Virus record (IMG/VR): IMGVR_UViG_646206259_000006
Length of the DNA: 17,564 nt
Reading direction: 5' to 3' (one strand)
Source of the DNA: a virus
Taxonomy: Duplodnaviria > Heunggongvirae > Uroviricota > Caudoviricetes
Below, one piece after another: positions 2,619-16,553 of this stretch. The notes beneath the pieces are model-generated. The model was not told the DNA's origin, made no database searches, and worked only from the letters and a program-made list of their open reading frames with translations. Both the position numbers and the translations under genes were made by a program. Every line of letters begins with the position of its first letter. The first letter of the stretch is position 1.

Positions 2619-2790
2619 GCCAACAGGAATACCACAACCACAAAAACGCTACAAAGATGCCCACGGAGCACTCGTTACTGTCGAAAGCGTGTCTCACAAC
2701 CGAGTGACGTTTTATCGCGACGGGTATCAATCGCCATGCGTACAACCGCTGGCGCGTTTCATGAAGGAGTTCGCGGAGGTTAACCAATGA
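2611..2790 (+). CDS. Small hypothetical protein (59 aa), possibly DUF4222-like
   Basis: ATG at 2611 preceded by GGAGG (2600-2604) and overlapping the upstream stop. The ORF-track call from 2524 is probably an over-extension. Confidence 0.5.
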   Translation: MSKPTGIPQPQKRYKDAHGALVTVESVSHNRVTFYRDGYQSPCVQPLARFMKEFAEVNQ

Positions 2791-3854
2791 TACCCGTCCA
2801 GAAGAAGACATTTTCACTGGCTGGTATGTCGCCAAAATCCAGCAATATGACAGCAAAGTCAGACATTAATACAGCAGATACAAGCAAAGTTTATCATTTG
2901 CTGGTGGTAGGAGCGGATGCCTTAACTATGTCAGAAATTACGGTCGATGGTGTTAGCGTTGAGAAGGTCAGCGGCTATGCCAGAGAATTTCTGGTCGTAG
3001 ATGGCTTTCTCTGCTCGTGTAGTGACTCCACAAAAACCTTCGTCCACGCGCGTGACGTTAACGAAATGAGCGCGATGTACTGTGCTTCTGGTTCTTCCAA
3101 TAGTGAGTTTTCGGAGTCCATAAAAAAGAGCTTGCCGTTATGCGGCAACACGGTTTATGGTTATAAGGCACCTCATAAAACGGGTGCCGGGATTGGCGTC
3201 CTGAAAATTCTGAAGGCGACATATGACGCGCCGAGCGTCTTTTTTTATGTCGTAGGTCTGACTCACCCATTTTTTGGGCGTTGGTGTATAATCCAGCGCC
3301 TTTGTCAATCAATGGTGGCTCAGGCGGGGGCTTCTTCGGAAGCGCCGGTATCCTTCAGAGCCGGTTACGCCAACCCTGTCTGGGCTACCACCAGCGAAAT
3401 TGGCGTTTCCGGTGGTAGCGTAACCTGCTATCTGAAGGAGGCTGCCACATGCTGGCTACTACCCCTACCCAAAAAACGCAATTTATCTGGATTATCGCCG
3501 CAGTTCGCCGCGATTGCCCGACAATTACCGCCAAAATTCATCATATTGCTGCCGAGTCTGAACGCGATGCTCGCCGTTCTCTGGTGCGCGATCACATCTG
3601 CTTTTTTGCTGGTCGTATCCGCATGGAGGTGGCACATGATTAAAAACTACGATGTGCATATGGATCCCCTCGAACGCACAAGCCAGATCATCACACTGAC
3701 AGAAGTGATTAACGACATTCTGGTGAGCAACTCTCCCTCACGAGACGAAAGACTGAAGGCGTTACTCGCGATATTGGATCTCGCCGTTCGTGACGTTCAT
3801 TTCCTGCTGGAAGGTGGCGAAATGCCAGTAAAAACGGGGGCAACCAATGAATAA
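2787..3854 (+). CDS. Hypothetical protein (355 aa as an uninterrupted ORF); 3' third may be a separate small gene starting at ATG 3636
   Basis: ATGA start/stop overlap with the upstream gene and GGAGG RBS at 2775-2779. No in-frame stop until 3854. The stretch about 3240-3636 is W/C/L-rich like a non-coding frame. ATG 3636 has its own GGAGG RBS. Confidence 0.45.
3449..3643 (+). CDS. Alternative small ORF (64 aa) nested out of frame inside the 2787..3854 ORF
   Basis: Strong RBS GAAGGAGG (3434-3441) 7 nt before the ATG. Protein-like composition. Frame opens after a TAG at 3416-3418. Cannot be real together with an intact long ORF unless genes overlap extensively. Confidence 0.3.
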   Translation: MLATTPTQKTQFIWIIAAVRRDCPTITAKIHHIAAESERDARRSLVRDHICFFAGRIRMEVAHD

Positions 3855-9216: not shown

Positions 9217-9389
9217 TGGCTATTTCAGTAAAGCCAGTATTGATAAGTGAGAAGCAAATGGAAGCGATAAAGAAAATTCAGGAGGAGCAGCGTAAAAAAT
9301 CAGAGGTAGGAGTTGCGCCAACGATCCACGAAATTGCTCGGGGATTAATGGATAAGGCGCTGGCTTACACTTTAACTGGACGTGGGTAA
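9217..9389 (+). CDS. Small hypothetical protein (57 aa), possibly ribbon-helix-helix-like DNA-binding
   Basis: AAGGGGGG RBS 5 nt upstream. Perfect -10 TATAAT at 9176-9181. The ORF-track call from 9087 is likely an over-extension. The RHH guess is from the beta-strand-then-helix pattern only. Confidence 0.45.
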
Positions 9390-9393
9390 ATTT

Positions 9394-10737
9394 ATGGCTA
9401 CGTGGCAACAGGGTATTAATTCTGGTGGTTTTCTGGCTGGCATCGGTGCGCAAAATGAGAATGCGCCAAAGGCAAGCGACATTAACGCAACGCTTGGTCT
9501 GATCCGCGAAAACAATGAACTGGCTCGCTCAGGTGCAAATAACGTTGCTCTGACAGGTCTTCGTGGTCTGGCTGGAGTTGCTGACATTTATAAGCAGCAG
9601 CAACAGCAGGAACGTAAAGCGGCATTCCAGAAAGGTTATGCAGATGCTTATGCGTCCGGTGACAGGGAGCAGATGCGTAATCTTATTACAGCATTCCCAG
9701 AAGAGTTTGAGGAAGTCCGTAAAGGGATGAGTTATGTCGATGATGCTCAAAGGGATGATTATGGCAATCTGGCGCTCAAAGCACAGGTAGCCTCATCGCT
9801 TGGTCAGGGCGCATTTGGCAGGTTCATGATGGATAATGAGCAGGAGATGCGTCGTTTAGGTATCCCTCCAGAAACTATTGCTGAAATGCAGGTTAATGAC
9901 CCGCAGGGCTTCCAGCATTTCGCAGGTAATCTGGCGCTGTTTTCTCTCGGTCATGAGAAGTATTTCGATATCAAAGATCAAATGGAAGGTCGTCGACTTG
10001 AGCAAGGGCGACTGGATGAAAGTATGCGTCAGGCTGACATGGAGAACGCGAGAGGATGGGCAAATATCCAGAACGCTCAACTAGACAGGGCTCAGCGAGC
10101 ACAAATTCACTCAGATGAGATGGGATTGAAGCTAATGGAGCTGGGGCAAAAAGGTAAGCCGTCAGCAGACTTAATTAAGGGATTAAATTCTGACATTACC
10201 AATTTTGGCAAAAATTATAACTCTGTCAGAGCGGCGGCAAACTCTCTGCAAGCCCTTAGCAAGGTAAATACTGGCGCTGCCCAACTTGGGATTATCTTCA
10301 ACTACATGAAATCTCTTGACCCGCAGTCAGTCGTTCGTGAAGGCGAACAGGTTCAGGTAATGCGGTCTGATGGCATATGGGGACAAATCAAAGGATACAT
10401 AGACCAGCTTAATGCTGGAAACGGCCTGTCGCAGGAGGCAAAGGATAACATTGTTAACGCCGCAAAAATCAACGCCAATGCTATGGGGCAGCAGTTTAAC
10501 CAGCAGGTTGACGAGTATCTCGATACATATGGAGAAACTATTCCTCAGGGGCTAAGAAAAAGCCTTGAAAGAAGGAAAGCGAAGCTATTTGACGATGTTT
10601 CCGGGCAGCCTACATCACAGGCTGGCACTGGACAGGCAAAAGCGGCAACCGGAGGAATATCAGAAGGCGCAACGGCAACCAACCCTAAAACTGGTCAGAA
10701 AATCATTTACAGGAACGGAAAATGGCAGCAAATGTAA
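9394..10737 (+). CDS. Hypothetical large protein (447 aa from ATG 9394; alternative GTG start 9382), Q/N/A-rich and predicted largely helical
   Basis: Long ORF with coding-like composition. No catalytic motif seen (no P-loop, HNH or PD-(D/E)xK). Low-complexity poly-Q stretch (QQQQQ). Flavour of phage internal/ejection or scaffold-type proteins; function unknown. Confidence 0.6.
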   Translation: MATWQQGINSGGFLAGIGAQNENAPKASDINATLGLIRENNELARSGANNVALTGLRGLAGVADIYKQQQQQERKAAFQKGYADAYASGDREQMRNLITAFPEEFEEVRKGMSYVDDAQRDDYGNLALKAQVASSLGQGAFGRFMMDNEQEMRRLGIPPETIAEMQVNDPQGFQHFAGNLALFSLGHEKYFDIKDQMEGRRLEQGRLDESMRQADMENARGWANIQNAQLDRAQRAQIHSDEMGLKLMELGQKGKPSADLIKGLNSDITNFGKNYNSVRAAANSLQALSKVNTGAAQLGIIFNYMKSLDPQSVVREGEQVQVMRSDGIWGQIKGYIDQLNAGNGLSQEAKDNIVNAAKINANAMGQQFNQQVDEYLDTYGETIPQGLRKSLERRKAKLFDDVSGQPTSQAGTGQAKAATGGISEGATATNPKTGQKIIYRNGKWQQM

Positions 10738-12839
10738 TCTTACCGGAAGGTTTTGTGCTCGATGAACAACCTGATAACTCACAGTTTCCTGATAGTTCAC
10801 AGCTTCCTGATGGTTTTGTGCTTGATGCCCAACCAGAACAGCAGCAATCACCTTTGGTTTCACCAGAGGAAAATTCCAGACAGGAAAATGTTGTTAATAA
10901 TGCTAACGGTTTCGACCGTTTTATGTATGGCGTTCTCAGTGGATTGATGGATGTTGGTAAAGGTGTTGGCCTGTTTCAGGATATGACACCAGAAGAGCAA
11001 GCCGCAATTCAGTCTCTACAGCAGAAGTTAGCGGCAAAACCATCAACCGCACAAGATGTTGGTGAGTTCGTTGGACAAGCAGCGCCATTTGTTAGTGGTG
11101 GTGGGATTATTTCTCAGGTTCCCAAAGGGGCGGCAAGACTGGCTGCCGCCGTAGGGCTTGGTGCTGGAGAAGGGGCTATTGTAGCCAATGGAACAAATAG
11201 CGATGTTGCTTCCGGCGCTGCTATTGGCGCTGTGGCTGGCCCTGTAGCCGAACTTGCTGGCCCTGCAATTAATAAAATAGCTGGGAAATTAACCAAGAAG
11301 AATGTTTCTTCGATTCCAGATATTGAGGGGATTACTCCTGCCGAAGAGAAAATTCGTAAGTTATCTGCACAAGGCAACCCAAATCTTGCCTCTTCGCTTG
11401 AAGGGCTAGATCTAAAACCTCAGAAAGAAATTGTTGAGGCTGCAAATAGGCTTCATGTTGATTCAGTTCTTCCTTCTCATTTATCAGGAAATGAGCAATA
11501 CCAAGCTGTAGAGCAAGCCCTAAAGTCACGGACAGGATCAGCGTTAAAAGCTCAAGAAGATAAAGCAATAAGCGAATTAGCCTCTAGTGCTGACAAGATA
11601 ATCGATGATGTTGCTGGTGCGCCAGATGCGTTAGCTATGAGCGAAAAATATATTTATCAGATAAATAGTAGAATGGAAGCACTAAAAAACCGTAGTGATC
11701 AGTTATATAAACGTGTTGATTCCGCTCTATCACCAAGAACAAAAGTCGAAGCAAATAACACAAGCACTATGCTGGAAAAAATCGCTGATGATTTAGGAGG
11801 GTGGGATAATCTTGACCCAATAGAAAAGCGAGTTTTTACAGCAATAAACCCCGGCCCAGATAGCATCCTAACGTATGCAAATTTAAACAGGCAAAGGCGT
11901 TTAGTTGGTGATGCCCTAAATAAAAAGCAGGGGCCATACAAAGATGCTGATAAAGAAGCGCTATCAAGACTATATGGAGCTTTAGCTGAAGACCAAAAAT
12001 CTGTCTTATCCAATACTGGATACTTGCGAGATTTCGAAGTCGCACAACGCCTTGTAGCTATGAGAAAAAACTTAGAAAGGCAAATGGTAAATCTTCGCGG
12101 GAAAACACTTAATGGGGATATAGCGTATAAAGTAACGAATTCTCTTCAATCTATGGCAAAAGGTGATGCGAGAGGGTTTCGTGAGATTATGCAAAATACT
12201 CCATCAAGAACATTGCGAAGGGAGCTAGTAGGAACAGCATTAAGAGATATGCTTTCCTCTGGGAAGCGTGGGGCCGACTTTAATCCATCTGGCTTTGCAG
12301 ATTGGTGGCAAAACTTGCAACACAGTGGACAGCTAAAGACTTTGGCTGAACATTTGCCAAAAGAAACAATGAGCGGACTATATGATGTATACAAAGTTGC
12401 CAGAGCAATAAAAAATGCTAAAGCGCATGAAATATCTACTGGTAAGCTGAATGAGTTTGTAAACAGATTTAATCGGGTAACAGCTCCATACGAACTAGCA
12501 GCAAAACACATTCAAAAAATAGGCACGATGGTAGGCGCTCATTTTGGATCGCTTGGAGCCATTGCTGGGGCTGATATTGGAGCAAGATTGGCGAGTAAAG
12601 CTCGATTAGCTGGTGGAGCAGGGGCGGCTGATGCTGCGGATAAATTAATTGCCTCGCCAGCCTTCCAGAGCGCAGTAAAAAATCTACACGGAAAAGCGCC
12701 TGGGCACATTGTTGATTCACGTATCAGGCGCTCCCCTCAATGGAAGAGTTTTTTTAACTCTCTTCCTGAACAGGAAAAACGGACCATCGCCAGACTGGGC
12801 ATCATTACTTGGCTATCTAATGATCCAGATAATGACTAG
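10722..12839 (+). CDS. Hypothetical large protein (705 aa) with N-terminal tandem peptide repeat, Gly/Ala-rich segments and a long helical middle
   Basis: Overlaps the upstream gene by 16 nt, so co-transcribed. N-terminal repeat PEGFVLDEQP / PDGFVLDAQP. GxxxG-rich segment (GLGAGEGAIVANG…AIGAVAGPVAELAGPA) and C-terminal Gly/Ala hydrophobic stretch (GAHFGSLGAIAGADIGARLA). No enzymatic motif recognised. Confidence 0.6.
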   Translation: MAANVILPEGFVLDEQPDNSQFPDSSQLPDGFVLDAQPEQQQSPLVSPEENSRQENVVNNANGFDRFMYGVLSGLMDVGKGVGLFQDMTPEEQAAIQSLQQKLAAKPSTAQDVGEFVGQAAPFVSGGGIISQVPKGAARLAAAVGLGAGEGAIVANGTNSDVASGAAIGAVAGPVAELAGPAINKIAGKLTKKNVSSIPDIEGITPAEEKIRKLSAQGNPNLASSLEGLDLKPQKEIVEAANRLHVDSVLPSHLSGNEQYQAVEQALKSRTGSALKAQEDKAISELASSADKIIDDVAGAPDALAMSEKYIYQINSRMEALKNRSDQLYKRVDSALSPRTKVEANNTSTMLEKIADDLGGWDNLDPIEKRVFTAINPGPDSILTYANLNRQRRLVGDALNKKQGPYKDADKEALSRLYGALAEDQKSVLSNTGYLRDFEVAQRLVAMRKNLERQMVNLRGKTLNGDIAYKVTNSLQSMAKGDARGFREIMQNTPSRTLRRELVGTALRDMLSSGKRGADFNPSGFADWWQNLQHSGQLKTLAEHLPKETMSGLYDVYKVARAIKNAKAHEISTGKLNEFVNRFNRVTAPYELAAKHIQKIGTMVGAHFGSLGAIAGADIGARLASKARLAGGAGAADAADKLIASPAFQSAVKNLHGKAPGHIVDSRIRRSPQWKSFFNSLPEQEKRTIARLGIITWLSNDPDND

Positions 12840-12858
12840 TGAATGGCCACGGATGGCC

Positions 12859-13284
12859 TCAATCTTTATTCTTTGAAATAGAGTCATTGATCTTTTCGAA
12901 ACACCAATGAAATCCACAAAAGAGAGCTACACCAATATAACAATACAAAACTATCAACCACCTTTCAGTGTCCGAAGGGTAAAAAACATCAATTACATAA
13001 GCAACACCAATTGGTATTAATGCTAGTAATAACATCGACACAGGACGTACAAACTTCTGAACTATATCAATTTTATAGAACCACAAGGCGGTATGTTTAA
13101 TGATATAAGTAAAGATGGCTGCGCCAATAATGGCAAAAAACACCATCGATAAAGTCGGGTATAACTTTGCGACAATTAAACCCAACAAAATAATTATAAC
13201 TGCCTGCCCCCTCACACCAACCCTCCCTTTAGCTTTGTTTAGAATGGCAATCATCATATATCCAAGACATGGCATTTGGTACAT
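12859..13284 (-). CDS. Small integral membrane protein (141 aa, about 4 predicted TM helices); function unknown
   Basis: Four hydrophobic stretches of about 18-20 aa (AVIIILLGLIVAKL, MVFFAIIGAAIFTYII, SMLLLALIPIGVAYVI, LIVLYCYIGVALFCGF). Convergent with the 705-aa gene, separated by 19 bp containing a small GGCCA-cgga-TGGCC hairpin. Confidence 0.5.
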   Translation of the reverse strand: MYQMPCLGYMMIAILNKAKGRVGVRGQAVIIILLGLIVAKLYPTLSMVFFAIIGAAIFTYIIKHTALWFYKIDIVQKFVRPVSMLLLALIPIGVAYVIDVFYPSDTERWLIVLYCYIGVALFCGFHWCFEKINDSISKNKD

Positions 13285-13375
13285 AGCTTGGGTCGGGATT
13301 TCAAATCCGCTCCCCGTTGATGGGGCCGTTACAGTACGCGCATATCCGCTTTATGTGAAACAGGAAGATTTTTCT

Positions 13376-13476
13376 GATATCACTGCCACAGCAAAACACC
13401 AATTTCGTGACCAGTACGCGCGCGAGGGGTATCAGTTGCAAAAATTTTGCAACCACGTCCGACCAGTACGCACACG
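13376..13476. repeat. Non-coding repeat block: two copies of an alternating-CG motif (CCAGTACGCGCGCG / CCAGTACGCACACG) flanking the inverted repeat TTGCAAAA-A-TTTTGCAA (13436-13452)
   Basis: Direct reading. A related roughly 55-bp sequence recurs at 16285-16338 and a shorter copy at 13688-13711. Confidence 0.5.
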
Positions 13477-13687
13477 ATGGCGGGGGATACCATGAAACTG
13501 TTCTCTACACGAGACAGAGTGGTGGTGATGTGTTGATTATCGGCGTATATGCGCACAGGACGCGCTATGACGATGTTTTATGCGGGTACACCAATCACAT
13601 GTATCTGGTGTGATAAATCGCGTTACATGACCTCTCATGTTGTGCTGGTGGTTATCACGACTTTCTGAATCTGGCCTTTGCCTGATA

Positions 13688-13711
13688 TTTTGCGACAAGT
13701 ACGCGCGCGTA
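13688..13711. repeat. Third copy of the CG-alternating motif, containing the perfect palindrome TACGCGCGCGTA
   Basis: Direct reading: TTTGCGACAAGTACGCGCGCGTAGC. Confidence 0.45.
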
Positions 13712-14165
13712 GCATCGAAATTATCGGATGGCGTATGCTGCTGGCAATATGAAGACCGATAGTATTAACCGAAAAGCGAAAGAGCTTCTCGATAACGGCA
13801 AGATCGCGGCAAGGGTTGCTGAATTTGAACAGATGTAAGGAATGGAACCAGAGAGGCGCTGGCGGCGAAAAAACGCCACTACCAGCGGATAAATGTGCCA
13901 ATCTTTTAGTTGGAAAAACAGCATAGAAGGCTACCATGATATGTAAAGATTGCTCAAAAAGTTATTATCAACGTCTAATTTCATTAAAAATGCTCCTTAT
14001 TGCTGTTAAAAATCAAAGAAATCATTTAAAAACCGTTCAACACCCCCCATCTGTCTTCAAAAAGATTTGTGTTGGTTAGTGACTAGTTACCTTTTATATG
14101 TAAATATATCCACAAGGGAAGTGGTGAAAATTTCGACTATTTAACCATAATCAAAGGAGGTGAAC

Positions 14166-14648
14166 ATGTCGAATACATCTGCACATGCCCTCTTGAAAGA
14201 TATCTGGGGCGATAGGAAATTCCCGGTTGATCCAGTATGGATTGCCAATGAGTTAGGGTTGGATGTTGTTGAAACCACGCTTGATGATGATGTTTCAGGC
14301 GCATTGCTGAAAGAGCCAGAACAAGATCCAGTAATCATACTCAATCGTAATGATAGTAACGTGCGCAAACGATTTACGTGTGCGCATGAGTTAGGGCATT
14401 ACGTCAAACGAACTGAGAACGGTCAGCCACTTGAATATGAGTTTGTTGATTACCGCGGAAAACTGGCAAGCCAAGGTGTAGACAGCGAAGAAATATTCGC
14501 CAATAACTTTGCAGCATGTCTTCTCATGCCAGAAAAAGAGGTTCGACGCCTCAACAATGCAGGATATGCACCAGTAATGATGGCTTCCTATTTTGGTGTA
14601 TCCGATGATGCTATACGTTATCGCCTAAAGAATTTAGGGCTTCGATGA
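14166..14648 (+). CDS. ImmA/IrrE-family (DUF955-type) zinc metallopeptidase (160 aa)
   Basis: AGGAGG RBS (14155-14160). HEXXH zinc-binding motif (CAHELGHY) in the context typical of ImmA/IrrE peptidases. No HTH domain detected in the protein itself. Confidence 0.7.
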   Translation: MSNTSAHALLKDIWGDRKFPVDPVWIANELGLDVVETTLDDDVSGALLKEPEQDPVIILNRNDSNVRKRFTCAHELGHYVKRTENGQPLEYEFVDYRGKLASQGVDSEEIFANNFAACLLMPEKEVRRLNNAGYAPVMMASYFGVSDDAIRYRLKNLGLR

Positions 14649-14651
14649 GTA

Positions 14652-15029
14652 ATGACGTCTAGATCTTACGCTATATCTGAAAAACTAAAGCAAGCGGCAA
14701 GACAAGCCAGAGGTGAACCAGCCTCTGGCTCATCTCCATCAGCAAAAACCCTCACACATCTAAATGATAAGGATCCAGCCAAAGCCCATCAGCGTGCAAA
14801 AACAAAAGATTTAAAAACAGACACAAAACTGAAAAAAATGTTTGCTCGGTGGTTTATCGGCATTCTGATAGGCCAGCTATTAGTTATGAATGGGATTTTT
14901 GTCCTTATTGGAGCAAAACTGCTCCATTTTAGTGATTTCGTTATAAACCTATTTATGGGGGGAACCCTCGCTGAAGTCTTTGGCATTGTTTTAGTGATGG
15001 CACGCTACCTGTTCTCCAAGCACGTCTAA
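14652..15029 (+). CDS. Small membrane protein (125 aa): basic hydrophilic N-terminus plus two C-terminal TM helices; coupled to the peptidase gene
   Basis: ATG 3 nt after the peptidase stop. Hydrophobic stretches FIGILIGQLLVMNGIFVLIGAKLL and LFMGGTLAEVFGIVLVMARYLF. Confidence 0.5.
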   Translation: MTSRSYAISEKLKQAARQARGEPASGSSPSAKTLTHLNDKDPAKAHQRAKTKDLKTDTKLKKMFARWFIGILIGQLLVMNGIFVLIGAKLLHFSDFVINLFMGGTLAEVFGIVLVMARYLFSKHV

Positions 15030-15045
15030 AAATCAAAATATAGGG

Positions 15046-15489
15046 CTACATTCTTAGAGCCACTGATAACTTTTCAGCATTGCTTCCCTGACGCTTCCAC
15101 GCGCTGTAAATGTCTTTATCCCATGCTTTACCAGCTTTTGTTTGATAGCCTGCTTCATTGAGCCGTTCCGCTATCACACGCCCATTATCAAATCCCTGTT
15201 GGATGGTATCGGCAATGATCTTTATAACTGCCGTTTCGTTATATGGCTTTGGTGGGATGTTCGGCTTTCCGGCAATAAGCGACGCAGCGGCTTTTTCCAT
15301 GCGCTCCACCAGCCCAAGCATTCGTGAATCAATAGACTTTTCCGGCTGTCCCAGCTTCATGCGAATCGCATCAACAAGCCAGGAGGTTTTATCCCCTCCA
15401 GAAGCGAGAACAGACCGATTAAACTCATCCTGCAATTCAGATGGGATGCGGAACGCGATCAGATTAGATTTGCTCATTGCAAAGACCAT
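15046..15489 (-). CDS. Putative DNA-binding regulator (147 aa): ribbon-helix-helix-like N-terminus with a serine-recombinase 'Recombinase'-domain-like C-terminal segment
   Basis: N-terminus NLIAFRIPSELQDEF…SWLVDAIRMKL resembles the RHH fold (Arc/MetJ/CopG). C-terminus IAERLNEAGYQTKAGKAWDKDIYSAWKRQ resembles the LNxxGxxTxxGxxW motif of the recombinase DNA-binding domain. Start could be ATG 15489 or 15477; neither has a clear SD. Confidence 0.5.
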   Translation of the reverse strand: MVFAMSKSNLIAFRIPSELQDEFNRSVLASGGDKTSWLVDAIRMKLGQPEKSIDSRMLGLVERMEKAAASLIAGKPNIPPKPYNETAVIKIIADTIQQGFDNGRVIAERLNEAGYQTKAGKAWDKDIYSAWKRQGSNAEKLSVALRM

Positions 15490-15590
15490 ATCAGTGAGTA
15501 ATATCCATACAGTATACCACTGTATAACACTGTTATACGCTCAAATATCAGCCAGAAAATAACGGACCAATCACAAAGCTATCGCTGTGT

Positions 15591-15735
15591 TGTTGGTTCA
15601 GAGCTGGGCTGTGTTGGTTCAAAATGAGTTGATGTTGGTTCAACATTTCAGAAAAAACACAATAAAAACAACGATCTTTACAAATTAAACCAACTGAACC
15701 AACTGAACCAACACCTTTTTGCTTATCTATATAAT
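15591..15735. promoter_or_regulatory. Divergent promoter/operator region: three direct TGTTGGTTCA repeats at 21-bp phasing (15591, 15612, 15633), two tandem inverted copies TGAACCAAC (15695-15712), and a perfect -10 TATAAT (15730-15735) for the plus-strand gene
   Basis: Direct reading. The inverted copies sit where the -35 of the PerC-like gene promoter would be. A related half-site TGTTGGTTAG occurs near 14071-14080 upstream of the peptidase gene. Confidence 0.55.
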
Positions 15736-15748
15736 CTGAGAGGCAGAA

Positions 15749-16036
15749 ATGATAAGGGACAGGAAAGCTGAAGAGCTGGAGTCAAAAGGGCTATACCGGA
15801 GAGCTGCCGCACGATGGGCAGAAGTCATGATGCTGGCAGATGGCGATAAAGAACGTGAACATGCAGCAAACAGACGCTCTGAATGTATCCGTAAGGCGGC
15901 ACGCCCACCAGCAACTACAGACAGATTCGGAGATTTAAGACAGGCAGTTAAGCGGACTCATTCGGCTCTTGGTATGGATGAGGAAGCGAGAGGGTACTTC
16001 AGGCGTTATCGCGATAAAGATTGCCAGAGACAGTAA
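15749..16036 (+). CDS. PerC-family transcriptional regulator-like protein (95 aa)
   Basis: N-terminal AEELESKGLYRRAAARWAEVM matches the conserved PerC/Pch N-terminus as remembered. GAGAGG RBS. Confidence 0.55.
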   Translation: MIRDRKAEELESKGLYRRAAARWAEVMMLADGDKEREHAANRRSECIRKAARPPATTDRFGDLRQAVKRTHSALGMDEEARGYFRRYRDKDCQRQ

Positions 16037-16284
16037 TGCTCTCTCTCTGTTTTGGCAAATTCCCCCTCACTTTGAAGGGATCGGAGCTATAAAAATGGTG
16101 TTATCCGGCTTCCTGCATTGTAGGTTTTCGAAAAAATCAATGGGTTAGGTCATCGTGCAAATTTGCACTCTGCCAGCCAACGCAATTTCTCGTTGGCGAA
16201 AATATCAGGTATTTACTGAACGAACGGTCTACCAGTCTATTCAGTTACCAGTTGCACATGGCTGTTTCATGTGAGAACGGAGGT

Positions 16285-16338
16285 TTTTTCGGACATCACT
16301 ATTGGTTACAGCAATTTCACGAGCAATACGCGCGCGCA
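16285..16338. repeat. Fourth copy of the CG-alternating motif family (ATCACT…CAATTTCACGAGCAATACGCGCGCGCAGG), related to 13376-13428
   Basis: Alignment by eye: shared blocks ATCACT, ACAGCAA, CAATTTC and TACGCGCGCG in the same order. Confidence 0.45.
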
Positions 16339-16553
16339 GGACAACAAGCCTGAACATAGTTACACACCTCGATCGTGAGGGATGTAGACAATGGCTTCTG
16401 GCCAAAGCACCCGAAAAAAACCGTGTACATAAGGGTGTACATAATCAAAAACCGCATTAGAAATAAACCAGCTTCAATGCGGCATTGAAGCCAATACTCT
16501 ACAAACAGATCCAAATAACTCGTAACGCCAATTCTTCCTTTTCAGCCTTCACA

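Follow-up and report, generated by a model that had tools for sequence, protein, structure and literature searches.

A candidate protease-partner module: an M78 metallopeptidase gene paired with a small membrane-protein gene in an exchangeable slot of an Escherichia coli island

A peptidase gene and a membrane-protein gene at the locus

The window analyzed here is the whole of the viral record IMGVR_UViG_646206259_000006 of IMG/VR (17,564 nucleotides; Caudoviricetes), which covers most of an integrative island of ~18 kb located between yicC and dinD in Escherichia coli. Two adjacent genes of this island, encoding a metallopeptidase of family M78 (ImmA/IrrE) and a small membrane protein with two transmembrane (TM) helices, hereafter the TM protein, are the subject of this study (Table 1). 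Together they make up a two-gene module that is conserved and mobile, and the constant partner of its ImmA/IrrE/CapP-like protease is a small membrane protein. The peptidase stop codon and the start codon of the TM gene are separated by 3 nt (TGA GTA ATG). The searched region around the pair was 100% identical to E. coli strain PA45B and other human isolates.

The peptidase open reading frame (ORF) opens in its longest form with GTG at 14160 and ends with TGA at 14646-14648. The likely start codon is the ATG at 14166, which is preceded by AAAGGAGGTG, the Shine-Dalgarno (SD) sequence at 14153-14162. A preliminary description of this DNA had placed the start at 14069, a position in non-coding DNA, in another frame and ~97 nt upstream of the likely start. 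The same description had noted an HEXXH motif in ImmA/IrrE context without a helix-turn-helix (HTH) domain, and this was borne out. Pfam Peptidase_M78 (PF06114) matched residues 28-155 over profile positions 2-123 of 123 (9.2e-20; 71.1 bits, cut-off 22), the motif reads HELGH, and the Pfam scan of the 160-aa protein returned no HTH domain. In 42 peptidase sequences, residues H74, E75, H78 and E109 were either invariant or conserved to at least 90%, and C72 was invariant. The first four align with H96, E97, H100 and E129 of CapP, respectively, and E109 is the likely third zinc ligand.

The best PADLOC match of the peptidase was CapP (8.1e-25, profile positions 10-150 of 242); the RmrA profiles (down to 8.8e-14) and PD-Lambda-2_B (5e-4) matched the peptidase domain only. 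The AlphaFold (AF2) model had a pLDDT of 90.1, and Foldseek ranked CapP 7t5t (E 9.6e-7, TMq 0.69) and PprI/IrrE 8sln and 3dti as its top structures, with an XRE-peptidase regulator of Mycobacterium tuberculosis also among the near matches. The protein consists of the peptidase domain followed by HTH-like C-terminal helices and ends at residue 160, with neither an XRE HTH nor the C-terminal GAF domain of the IrrE/CapP type. It is soluble and acidic, with a net charge of -6. Between H78 and E109 lies an insertion that corresponds in the alignment to the cysteine-switch loop of CapP; at the position of C113 it carries the near-invariant Y91 in a predicted beta-strand. This CapP-like loop may hint that the peptidase is auto-inhibited until it is activated.

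As the preliminary description had stated, the gene that begins 3 nt further on encodes a 125-aa protein with a basic N-terminus and two C-terminal TM helices; ORF calls, hydropathy and AlphaFold all agree with this. Residues 1-63 are basic, with a net charge of +9, and are mostly predicted to be disordered. AlphaFold modelled the remainder as a helical hairpin at a pLDDT of 80-88 (a pLDDT of 67 is also given for the TM model as a 60-residue hairpin), and the C-terminal tail is short and basic. Because both the N-terminal tail and the C-terminus are basic, an N-in/C-in topology is predicted, which would place the tail on the cytoplasmic side, where the peptidase is.

Fourteen positions were invariant in 31 TM homologues: D57, L60, A65, L72, Q75, L76, F83, G87, G104, T105, E108, F110, G111 and L120. 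N80 was nearly invariant, and the hydrophobic core also contains small-residue (small-xxx-small) motifs. The tail, in the same 31 homologues, differs in length and sequence. Mean pairwise divergence was 79%, 44% and 49% for the tail, the TM core and the peptidase, respectively, so that the TM core is better conserved than the peptidase and the tail is fast-evolving. No match to the TM protein was found in the Pfam, NCBIfam or PADLOC models, which include no holin or toxin family homologous to it, the likeness to these being one of topology only; nor was it similar to known superinfection exclusion (Sie) proteins. It matched PHROGs of unknown function only (phrog_5346 at 6.7e-23). A comparison with catalogued defence and toxin-antitoxin (TA) families had been proposed in the preliminary description; in PADLOC it gave the CapP, RmrA and PD-Lambda-2_B profiles for the peptidase and nothing for the TM protein.

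Pairing of the two genes across genomes, phages and plasmids

A search with the TM protein reached Pectobacterium, Serratia, Plesiomonas, Methylococcaceae and many metagenomes. A scan of GTDB at one genome per species yielded 30 loci, scanning IMG/VR gave 13 true loci, and an exact protein look-up gave 6 more. The GTDB loci span Gamma- and Betaproteobacteria, Nitrospirota, Desulfobacterota, Balneola and one Bacillota metagenome-assembled genome (MAG), and the pair occurs in at least six phyla, plus prophages (~50 loci). A peptidase gene was located directly upstream of the TM homologue, on the same strand, in 36 of 36 genome and metagenome loci, in 13 of 13 viral contigs and in Gordonia phage Kita. 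The upstream peptidases all belong to the same subfamily (phmmer 1e-29 to 1e-80), and the intergenic gap ranged from -4 to +15 nt in the 38 loci measured. In the reverse check, a TM-family frame was present downstream of four of four distant peptidase homologues (~50% identity); gene finders had mis-called it in one locus, and a stop breaks it in two loci that are nearly identical to each other. The high-GC contigs among these distant homologues are taken to be actinobacterial. The pairing of peptidase and TM protein is thus far beyond chance.

The flanking ORFs (n = 121) were heterogeneous and included ThiC, ThiG, tRNA synthetases, MutL, DnaG/RpoD, a Mu portal protein, P2 GPA and methyltransferases. 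No conserved third gene emerged from their all-against-all clustering, and no recurrent HTH family from Pfam and PADLOC scans of them. As the pairing is constant and there is no third conserved gene, the selected unit consists of exactly these two genes. The mirror-tree correlation between peptidase and TM core was r = 0.66, a value that shows co-inheritance only and is not evidence of interaction.

Searching 1.84 billion cluster representatives (50% identity) with a profile returned 1,456 TM-family members, 333 of them at <=1e-10. The best 150 of the 1,456 were 49-236 aa long and the hairpin was always C-terminal. Among these 150, no fusion of peptidase and TM protein was found, and the long-tailed homologues contained no Pfam domain and no HTH. 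The apparent fusion P0021 was a deletion artefact without the tail and was not used. Searches of the phage collection with tblastn (TM protein) and blastn (pair) gave nothing, and the low-complexity filter may have masked the hydrophobic sequence; profile and pattern searches did recover phage copies of the pair.

Of 5,426 E. coli genomes, 449 carry a second allele of the pair. Its peptidase and TM core are 55% and 43% identical to those of the window, respectively, and its TM protein has 201 aa. In a lambdoid prophage, this allele is inserted as a moron of opposite orientation between Q and the replication genes, adjoining a GIY-YIG nuclease. In Plesiomonas, the pair ends a similar primase/Ash/Bro island and adjoins a PIN_8 protein. 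Gordonia phages such as Kita carry it as gp32/gp33 between the tail genes and the integrase region (TM hidden Markov model 7e-9; 4-nt overlap), and in actinophages it lies within the prophage-expressed region. In mycobacteriophage Che9c (L069, 27464-28359), the gene for a peptidase of the subfamily (48% identity) shares 4 nt with that for a 129-aa protein from outside the TM family, in which an N-terminal region that is acidic and of low complexity is combined with a single TM segment at the C-terminus; the two genes adjoin a HicA/HicB module. The peptidase may thus be able to take different tail-anchored membrane proteins as partners. A Streptomyces plasmid encodes a 41%-identical peptidase without GAF, with an HTH protein upstream, beside a CD-NTase and a ThiF protein. 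This arrangement is CapH/CapP-like, and it marks the point where the clade meets the canonical HTH-coupled enzymes.

Several loci showed local peculiarities. In L058/L059:4506-5000, a metagenomic lineage found in 23 contigs, the TM frame stops after TM1, and the neighbours include an HD-domain (dGTPase-like) protein and CsrA. In Methylobacter and other Methylococcaceae (L003, L006 and L013), the pair is located between genes for a 302-aa PAPS_reduct (CysD-like) protein and a 541-aa EF-Tu-type (CysN-like) GTPase, all on one strand, and two unannotated proteins of ~420 aa come next; the arrangement suggests an insertion of the pair into an operon for sulfate activation. The pair is syntenic in Pseudoalteromonas and in Methylococcaceae, where its setting looks chromosomal.

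The exchangeable slot of the E. coli island and natural variants of the cassette

The island also encodes an integrase (just beyond the window), a small HTH protein, an AntA/AntB antirepressor, an Ash-family protein and a DUF5906 primase-helicase. Its sister islands in ACN001 (L060) and ET761 (L061) occupy the same chromosomal site. The flanks of the cassette, 12000-13779 and 15055/15067-16416, match these islands at 90-99%, and the interior, 13780-15054, is unrelated. In ACN001 the slot holds one Abi_2 gene (Pfam 3.6e-52), and in ET761 it is nearly empty, with 330 bp and a 66-aa ORF only. Megablast of 12000-16400 against the 5,426 complete E. coli genomes found related islands in 655 genomes and the entire stretch in 26; in an evenly spaced sample of the island matches, about 10 of 25 had an 'Abi family protein' in the slot and 3 of 25 the peptidase pair. 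The cassette therefore lies in a variable hotspot of a mobile element, where it alternates with a known defence gene. The RHH-like gene and perC are retained whether the slot is filled by Abi_2, nearly empty or filled by the pair, and they are island backbone and not partners of the peptidase.

The leader of the cassette contains a weak sigma-70-like site (GTGAAA-16-CATAAT, 14124-14151). A promoter is not established, because the yield of the promoter and terminator scan was no higher than that expected from shuffled sequence. Neither Rfam nor the tRNA scan gave a match within the cassette or close to it. The preliminary description had placed the pair in an AT-rich stretch bounded by related repeats. 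The cassette is indeed below the rest of the window in GC, but only modestly so (41% versus 44-54%). The repeats exist as well, as a GC-rich direct-repeat family with the core AGTACGCGCGCG in unannotated DNA of the conserved backbone (13396-13428, 13461-13480, 13681-13713 and 16308-16340), but they do not bound the mobile unit, which extends over ~13780-15054. They were rejected as cassette borders, with two copies lying in the conserved left backbone and none near the integrase end of L001. They may be gene remnants or recombination sites.

Natural variants, that is, near-identical versions of the E. coli cassette found in the protein database, carried lesions in either gene. In P0128, the peptidase is truncated by a 1-nt deletion in the GGG (14394-14396) of the HELGH codons; this form was present in 19 contigs from several sequencing runs. 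The TM gene of P0128-type loci is intact in L063 and L065 and carries an in-frame 3-nt deletion in L064. An in-frame deletion in P0063 removes TCAHELGHYVKRT, the HExxH segment of the peptidase. The opposite lesion, a TM gene frameshifted before TM1 beside an intact peptidase, was found in P0016 (L066), with a 2-nt deletion in the A7 tract at 14827-14833, and in P0039 (L067), with an 8-nt deletion. P0006 is a TM protein without 12 residues of TM1. Since frameshifts in single genes exist, cells tolerate the loss of either partner, and strict addiction is disfavoured in either direction, with the caveat that a premature stop 170 nt upstream may lower coupled TM translation. From the sequences, single-gene loss is compatible with a sensor and an effector that remain silent in the absence of a trigger. 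The homopolymer frameshifts (A7; GGG) could be plain decay or a mutational on/off switch.

Other parts of the island are described here for completeness. Homologues of P22-type ejection proteins are encoded to the left of the cassette, and the sister loci match Pfam Phage_P22_gp16 in this region. No capsid, tail or terminase gene was seen in the window or annotated in the PA45B island. Ejection genes without these are unusual for a satellite-like island and may be tied to hijacking of, or interference with, a P22-like helper. At the second variable slot, between these genes and the cassette, the sister islands have either a 204-aa protein with a weak SieA Pfam match or a 232-aa protein. SieA is the superinfection exclusion protein of P22. 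Three direct copies of TGTTGGTTCA with a spacing of ~21 nt are located at 15590-15646, in the divergent intergenic region of the RHH-like gene and perC, and resemble operators or iterons to which a regulator of the island itself would bind. At 3168-3395 on the plus strand, Rfam matched isrK (3168-3245, 67.8 bits) and C4 antisense RNA (3308-3395, 79.9 bits) above the gathering score. Both matches fall inside the 'ash family protein' ORF (2787-3854), just 3' of the AntA/AntB gene. They suggest that the island has an antisense control circuit of the P1/P7 immI (c4-ant) type, and the ORF is possibly over-called.

Table 1. Coordinates of the gene pair, its cassette and neighbouring island features in the window
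Feature	Position	Strand	Evidence or remark
Peptidase, M78 (ImmA/IrrE), zinc metallopeptidase	14166..14648	+	160 aa, single domain; PF06114, CapP profile, AF2, Foldseek
Zinc-binding/catalytic motif HELGH	14385..14399	+	residues 74-78: H74, E75, H78
Membrane protein, 125 aa, two-TM hairpin	14652..15029	+	ORF calls, hydropathy, AF2
Disordered basic tail, cytoplasmic by predicted topology	residues 1-52 of TM protein		AF2, hydropathy
Conserved juxtamembrane helix, DxxTDTxLKK	residues about 53-66 of TM protein		
A7 tract just 5' of TM1	14827..14833	+	natural 2-nt deletion site (L066 vs window)
TM helix 1 (TM1)	14850..14912	+	residues ~67-87; hydropathy; AF2 helix 42-87
TM helix 2, holds invariant E108	14937..14999	+	residues ~96-116; hydropathy; AF2 helix 95-122; alignment
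Swappable cargo cassette, 5' region and two genes	13780..15054	+	blastn of window vs L060 and L061
Cassette-specific non-coding leader, presumed promoter region	13780..14165	+	no credible ORF
RHH-like protein, 147 aa	15046-15489	-	island backbone gene
PerC	15749-16036		island gene
P22-type ejection/DNA-transfer homologues	9382-10737 and 10722-12839	+	phrog_917 at 4e-132; phrog_6704, phrog_770 'DNA transfer protein'
Small multi-TM protein	12859-13284	-	weak matches only: Bax1-I, CBO0543; second variable slot left of cassette

Proposed mechanism, rival explanations and known systems

Our preferred reading, to which we would give somewhat less than an even chance, is that a signal-activated protease acts on its membrane partner and thereby causes membrane damage, the pair being mobile phage-defence cargo. 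The two genes would be co-translated as one module, which prophages, satellite-like islands and small insertions in the chromosome carry as cargo that can be exchanged. The peptidase would be latent and site-specific, like ImmA, IrrE and CapP, and would be switched on by a stress or infection cue; CapP is activated by single-stranded DNA, and IrrE by stress-released zinc or a ligand. Its target would be the cytoplasmic tail or the juxtamembrane helix of the N-in/C-in two-TM partner and not an HTH repressor, and once active it would clip or release the TM protein. The freed hairpin, with Q75, N80, T105, E108 and the small-xxx-small motifs, may then oligomerize and permeabilize or depolarize the inner membrane. 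Infection by a competing phage would be aborted, or the cell arrested, to the benefit of the carrier island or prophage. The layout of the two genes, their obligate pairing, the intact active site, the position in a hotspot and the mobility are shown by the sequences; the TM protein as substrate or partner, the membrane damage, the trigger and the phage-defence outcome are what we infer here. A stronger version, in which an M78 protease has a membrane-protein substrate and cleavage or release of the tail turns a dormant hairpin into a pore, would make the pair a gasdermin-like, new abortive-infection (Abi) family across phyla; drawn by analogy, it is possible but rather doubtful.

The protease-and-membrane-damage reading is preferred because the pairing is obligate, no other neighbour is conserved, the active site is kept family-wide and the fold is nearest to the latent proteases CapP and IrrE. 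It is also preferred because a disordered, fast-evolving tail is joined to a conserved TM core with membrane-embedded polar residues, and because the slot is shared with Abi_2, a prophage carries the pair as a moron, actinophages have copies and single-gene loss is tolerated. Several points weigh against it. We infer the physical interaction of peptidase and TM protein from linkage only. The tail is poorly conserved, which would be odd for an inhibitory domain, and no conserved cleavage motif is evident beyond the juxtamembrane DxxTDTxLKK, itself present in a part of the family only. Apart from its copies in Enterobacteria and phages, the pair is mostly found among housekeeping genes and not in recognizable defence islands; PADLOC models match few of its neighbours, and the 121 flanking ORFs are little enriched in defence genes. 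In one Methylococcaceae MAG (L031:3618-4121), RELGR replaces HELGH in the peptidase and several other conserved positions are altered, with the downstream TM gene kept, which suggests either a decaying copy or a role in binding that is independent of catalysis.

In a classical TA-like pair, the TM protein would be constitutively toxic, the upstream peptidase would be the antitoxin by cleavage or binding, and loss or inhibition of the peptidase would kill the cell. The neutralizer-first gene order, the tight or overlapping spacing and the scattering among housekeeping genes and prophages are consistent with this, as is the finding of a tight pair of small genes (-4 to +15 nt in 38 loci) with a patchy, mobile distribution. 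L031, which keeps the pair despite a dead HExxH, would fit neutralization by binding, and the Che9c peptidase pair adjoins HicAB. The explanation is nevertheless unlikely: the peptidase is truncated beside an intact TM gene in the 1-nt deletion variants (19 contigs), although lost coupling may lower TM expression there, and an in-frame loss of the HExxH segment exists in P0063. The preliminary proposal of a TA or Abi pair is thus supported by comparison for the coupling of the peptidase to a TM protein rather than to an HTH repressor and for cargo that alternates with Abi_2, and is not supported for classical addiction, given the single-gene frameshifts; in this broader sense the pair may be TA-like or Abi cargo. 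The roles could also be reversed, with the peptidase as an effector that cleaves an essential host or phage protein and the TM protein as an inhibitor, an anchor or a sensor releasing the peptidase upon membrane perturbation by phage entry or lysis proteins. Lit, which cleaves EF-Tu, is a parallel for such an effector, and the M78-containing component of PD-lambda-2 is toxic alone. The conserved TM core could serve as a sensing or docking surface, and electrostatic attraction could hold the basic tail (+9) to the acidic peptidase (-6). But the peptidase is intact in L066 and L067, where the TM gene is frameshifted, so free peptidase is not lethal, and the characterized M78 enzymes are all narrow regulators and not general toxins; we regard this reversal as quite unlikely.

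Two further explanations take the pair out of abortive infection. The TM protein may have a non-abortive membrane role, either in blocking DNA entry or changing the envelope (superinfection exclusion) or as a housekeeping stress element, with the peptidase processing it or turning it over. The small membrane proteins in the neighbouring island slot, SieA-like in one variant, the P22-type ejection-protein homologues of the island and the syntenic, chromosomal-looking pairs of Pseudoalteromonas and Methylococcaceae point in this direction. The TM protein has no likeness to known Sie proteins, however, and the invariant or nearly invariant polar residues in both TM helices suggest a pore, a channel or a specific oligomer and not a passive blocker, which makes such a role improbable. 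The preliminary description had also suggested that the peptidase is the derepression protease of the island, cleaving a repressor such as the adjacent RHH protein; more widely, it might cleave this, a helper-phage or another island repressor, with the TM protein as an accessory or an unrelated moron. Derepression is the canonical role of ImmA, IrrE and CapP, and the 41%-identical peptidase of the Streptomyces plasmid has an upstream HTH next to a CBASS-type CD-NTase. On the other hand, the RHH-like gene and perC are backbone, kept with Abi_2 or with a near-empty slot, no such gene adjoins the pair elsewhere, and ~50 loci have no conserved DNA-binding neighbour, the TM partner always being there. 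The cassette also moves as a unit into chromosomal sites outside mobile elements, and derepression is very improbable as the function of the pair.

Among known systems, CapH/CapP (Lau et al. 2022, bioRxiv 10.1101/2022.04.27.489752; PDB 7t5t) is the closest. CapP is the best PADLOC, PDB sequence and fold match of the peptidase and shares with it the HExxH with a downstream Glu, the position of the switch loop and the HTH-like helical C-terminus, and both are parts of two-gene modules associated with defence loci. In contrast to CapH/CapP, the pair described here has no HTH partner, no GAF domain and no switch Cys (Tyr instead), its partner is a membrane protein encoded downstream, and there is no adjacent effector operon to regulate. 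ImmA/ImmR of ICEBs1 and IrrE(PprI)/DdrO of Deinococcus likewise belong to M78/COG2856 and have protease and substrate genes side by side on mobile elements, and the peptidase is ImmA-like in size (~160-170 aa, single domain). Their substrates are XRE-type repressors, whereas the partner here is membrane-embedded and has no DNA-binding domain. No adjacent or fused XRE/HTH repressor was found in the peptidase, the TM protein or its long-tailed homologues, and none recurred among the 121 neighbouring ORFs. RosmerTA (RmrT/RmrA) and PD-lambda-2 are TA-like defence modules built on an M78 domain, but RmrA and PD-lambda-2B are HTH-peptidase fusions of ~360-400 aa, of which only the peptidase part aligns (RmrA profile ~165-292), and the TM protein matches no RmrT or other PADLOC model. 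Bacterial gasdermins with their protease, and the TM effectors of CBASS, Pycsar and retrons, serve as a working analogy of a soluble sensor or protease beside a small membrane effector, and class II holins share the N-in/C-in two-TM topology. The TM protein has no sequence or fold relation to any of these, it is far smaller than gasdermins, and cleavage is only proposed here.

In the literature, COG2856 was discussed only with Xre partners and PIN/RelE toxins (Makarova et al. 2009), and other M78-containing or TM-containing systems have been reported (Vassallo et al. 2022; Rousset et al. 2022). A full-text literature search, made also with the RefSeq accessions of the two alleles, turned up no account of the pair. 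The candidate novelty is that, in a protease-partner module of the M78 type, a membrane protein stands where the repressor would be. The module is invisible to annotation of the PADLOC type because the TM partner has no model in PADLOC v2. The slot of the yicC-dinD island is a hotspot of defence-type cargo, in which the alternative Abi_2 allele gives a clean natural comparison. To our knowledge, the characterized M78 peptidases (ImmA, IrrE and CapP) all control DNA-binding repressors. A large M78 clade in which a membrane protein replaces the repressor, with a TM family that numbers ~1,456 clusters (50% identity) and reaches from Proteobacteria to Actinobacteria and into their phages, would widen the known role of this protease family and would add a compact two-gene module of ~0.9 kb to the phage-defence and TA catalogue.

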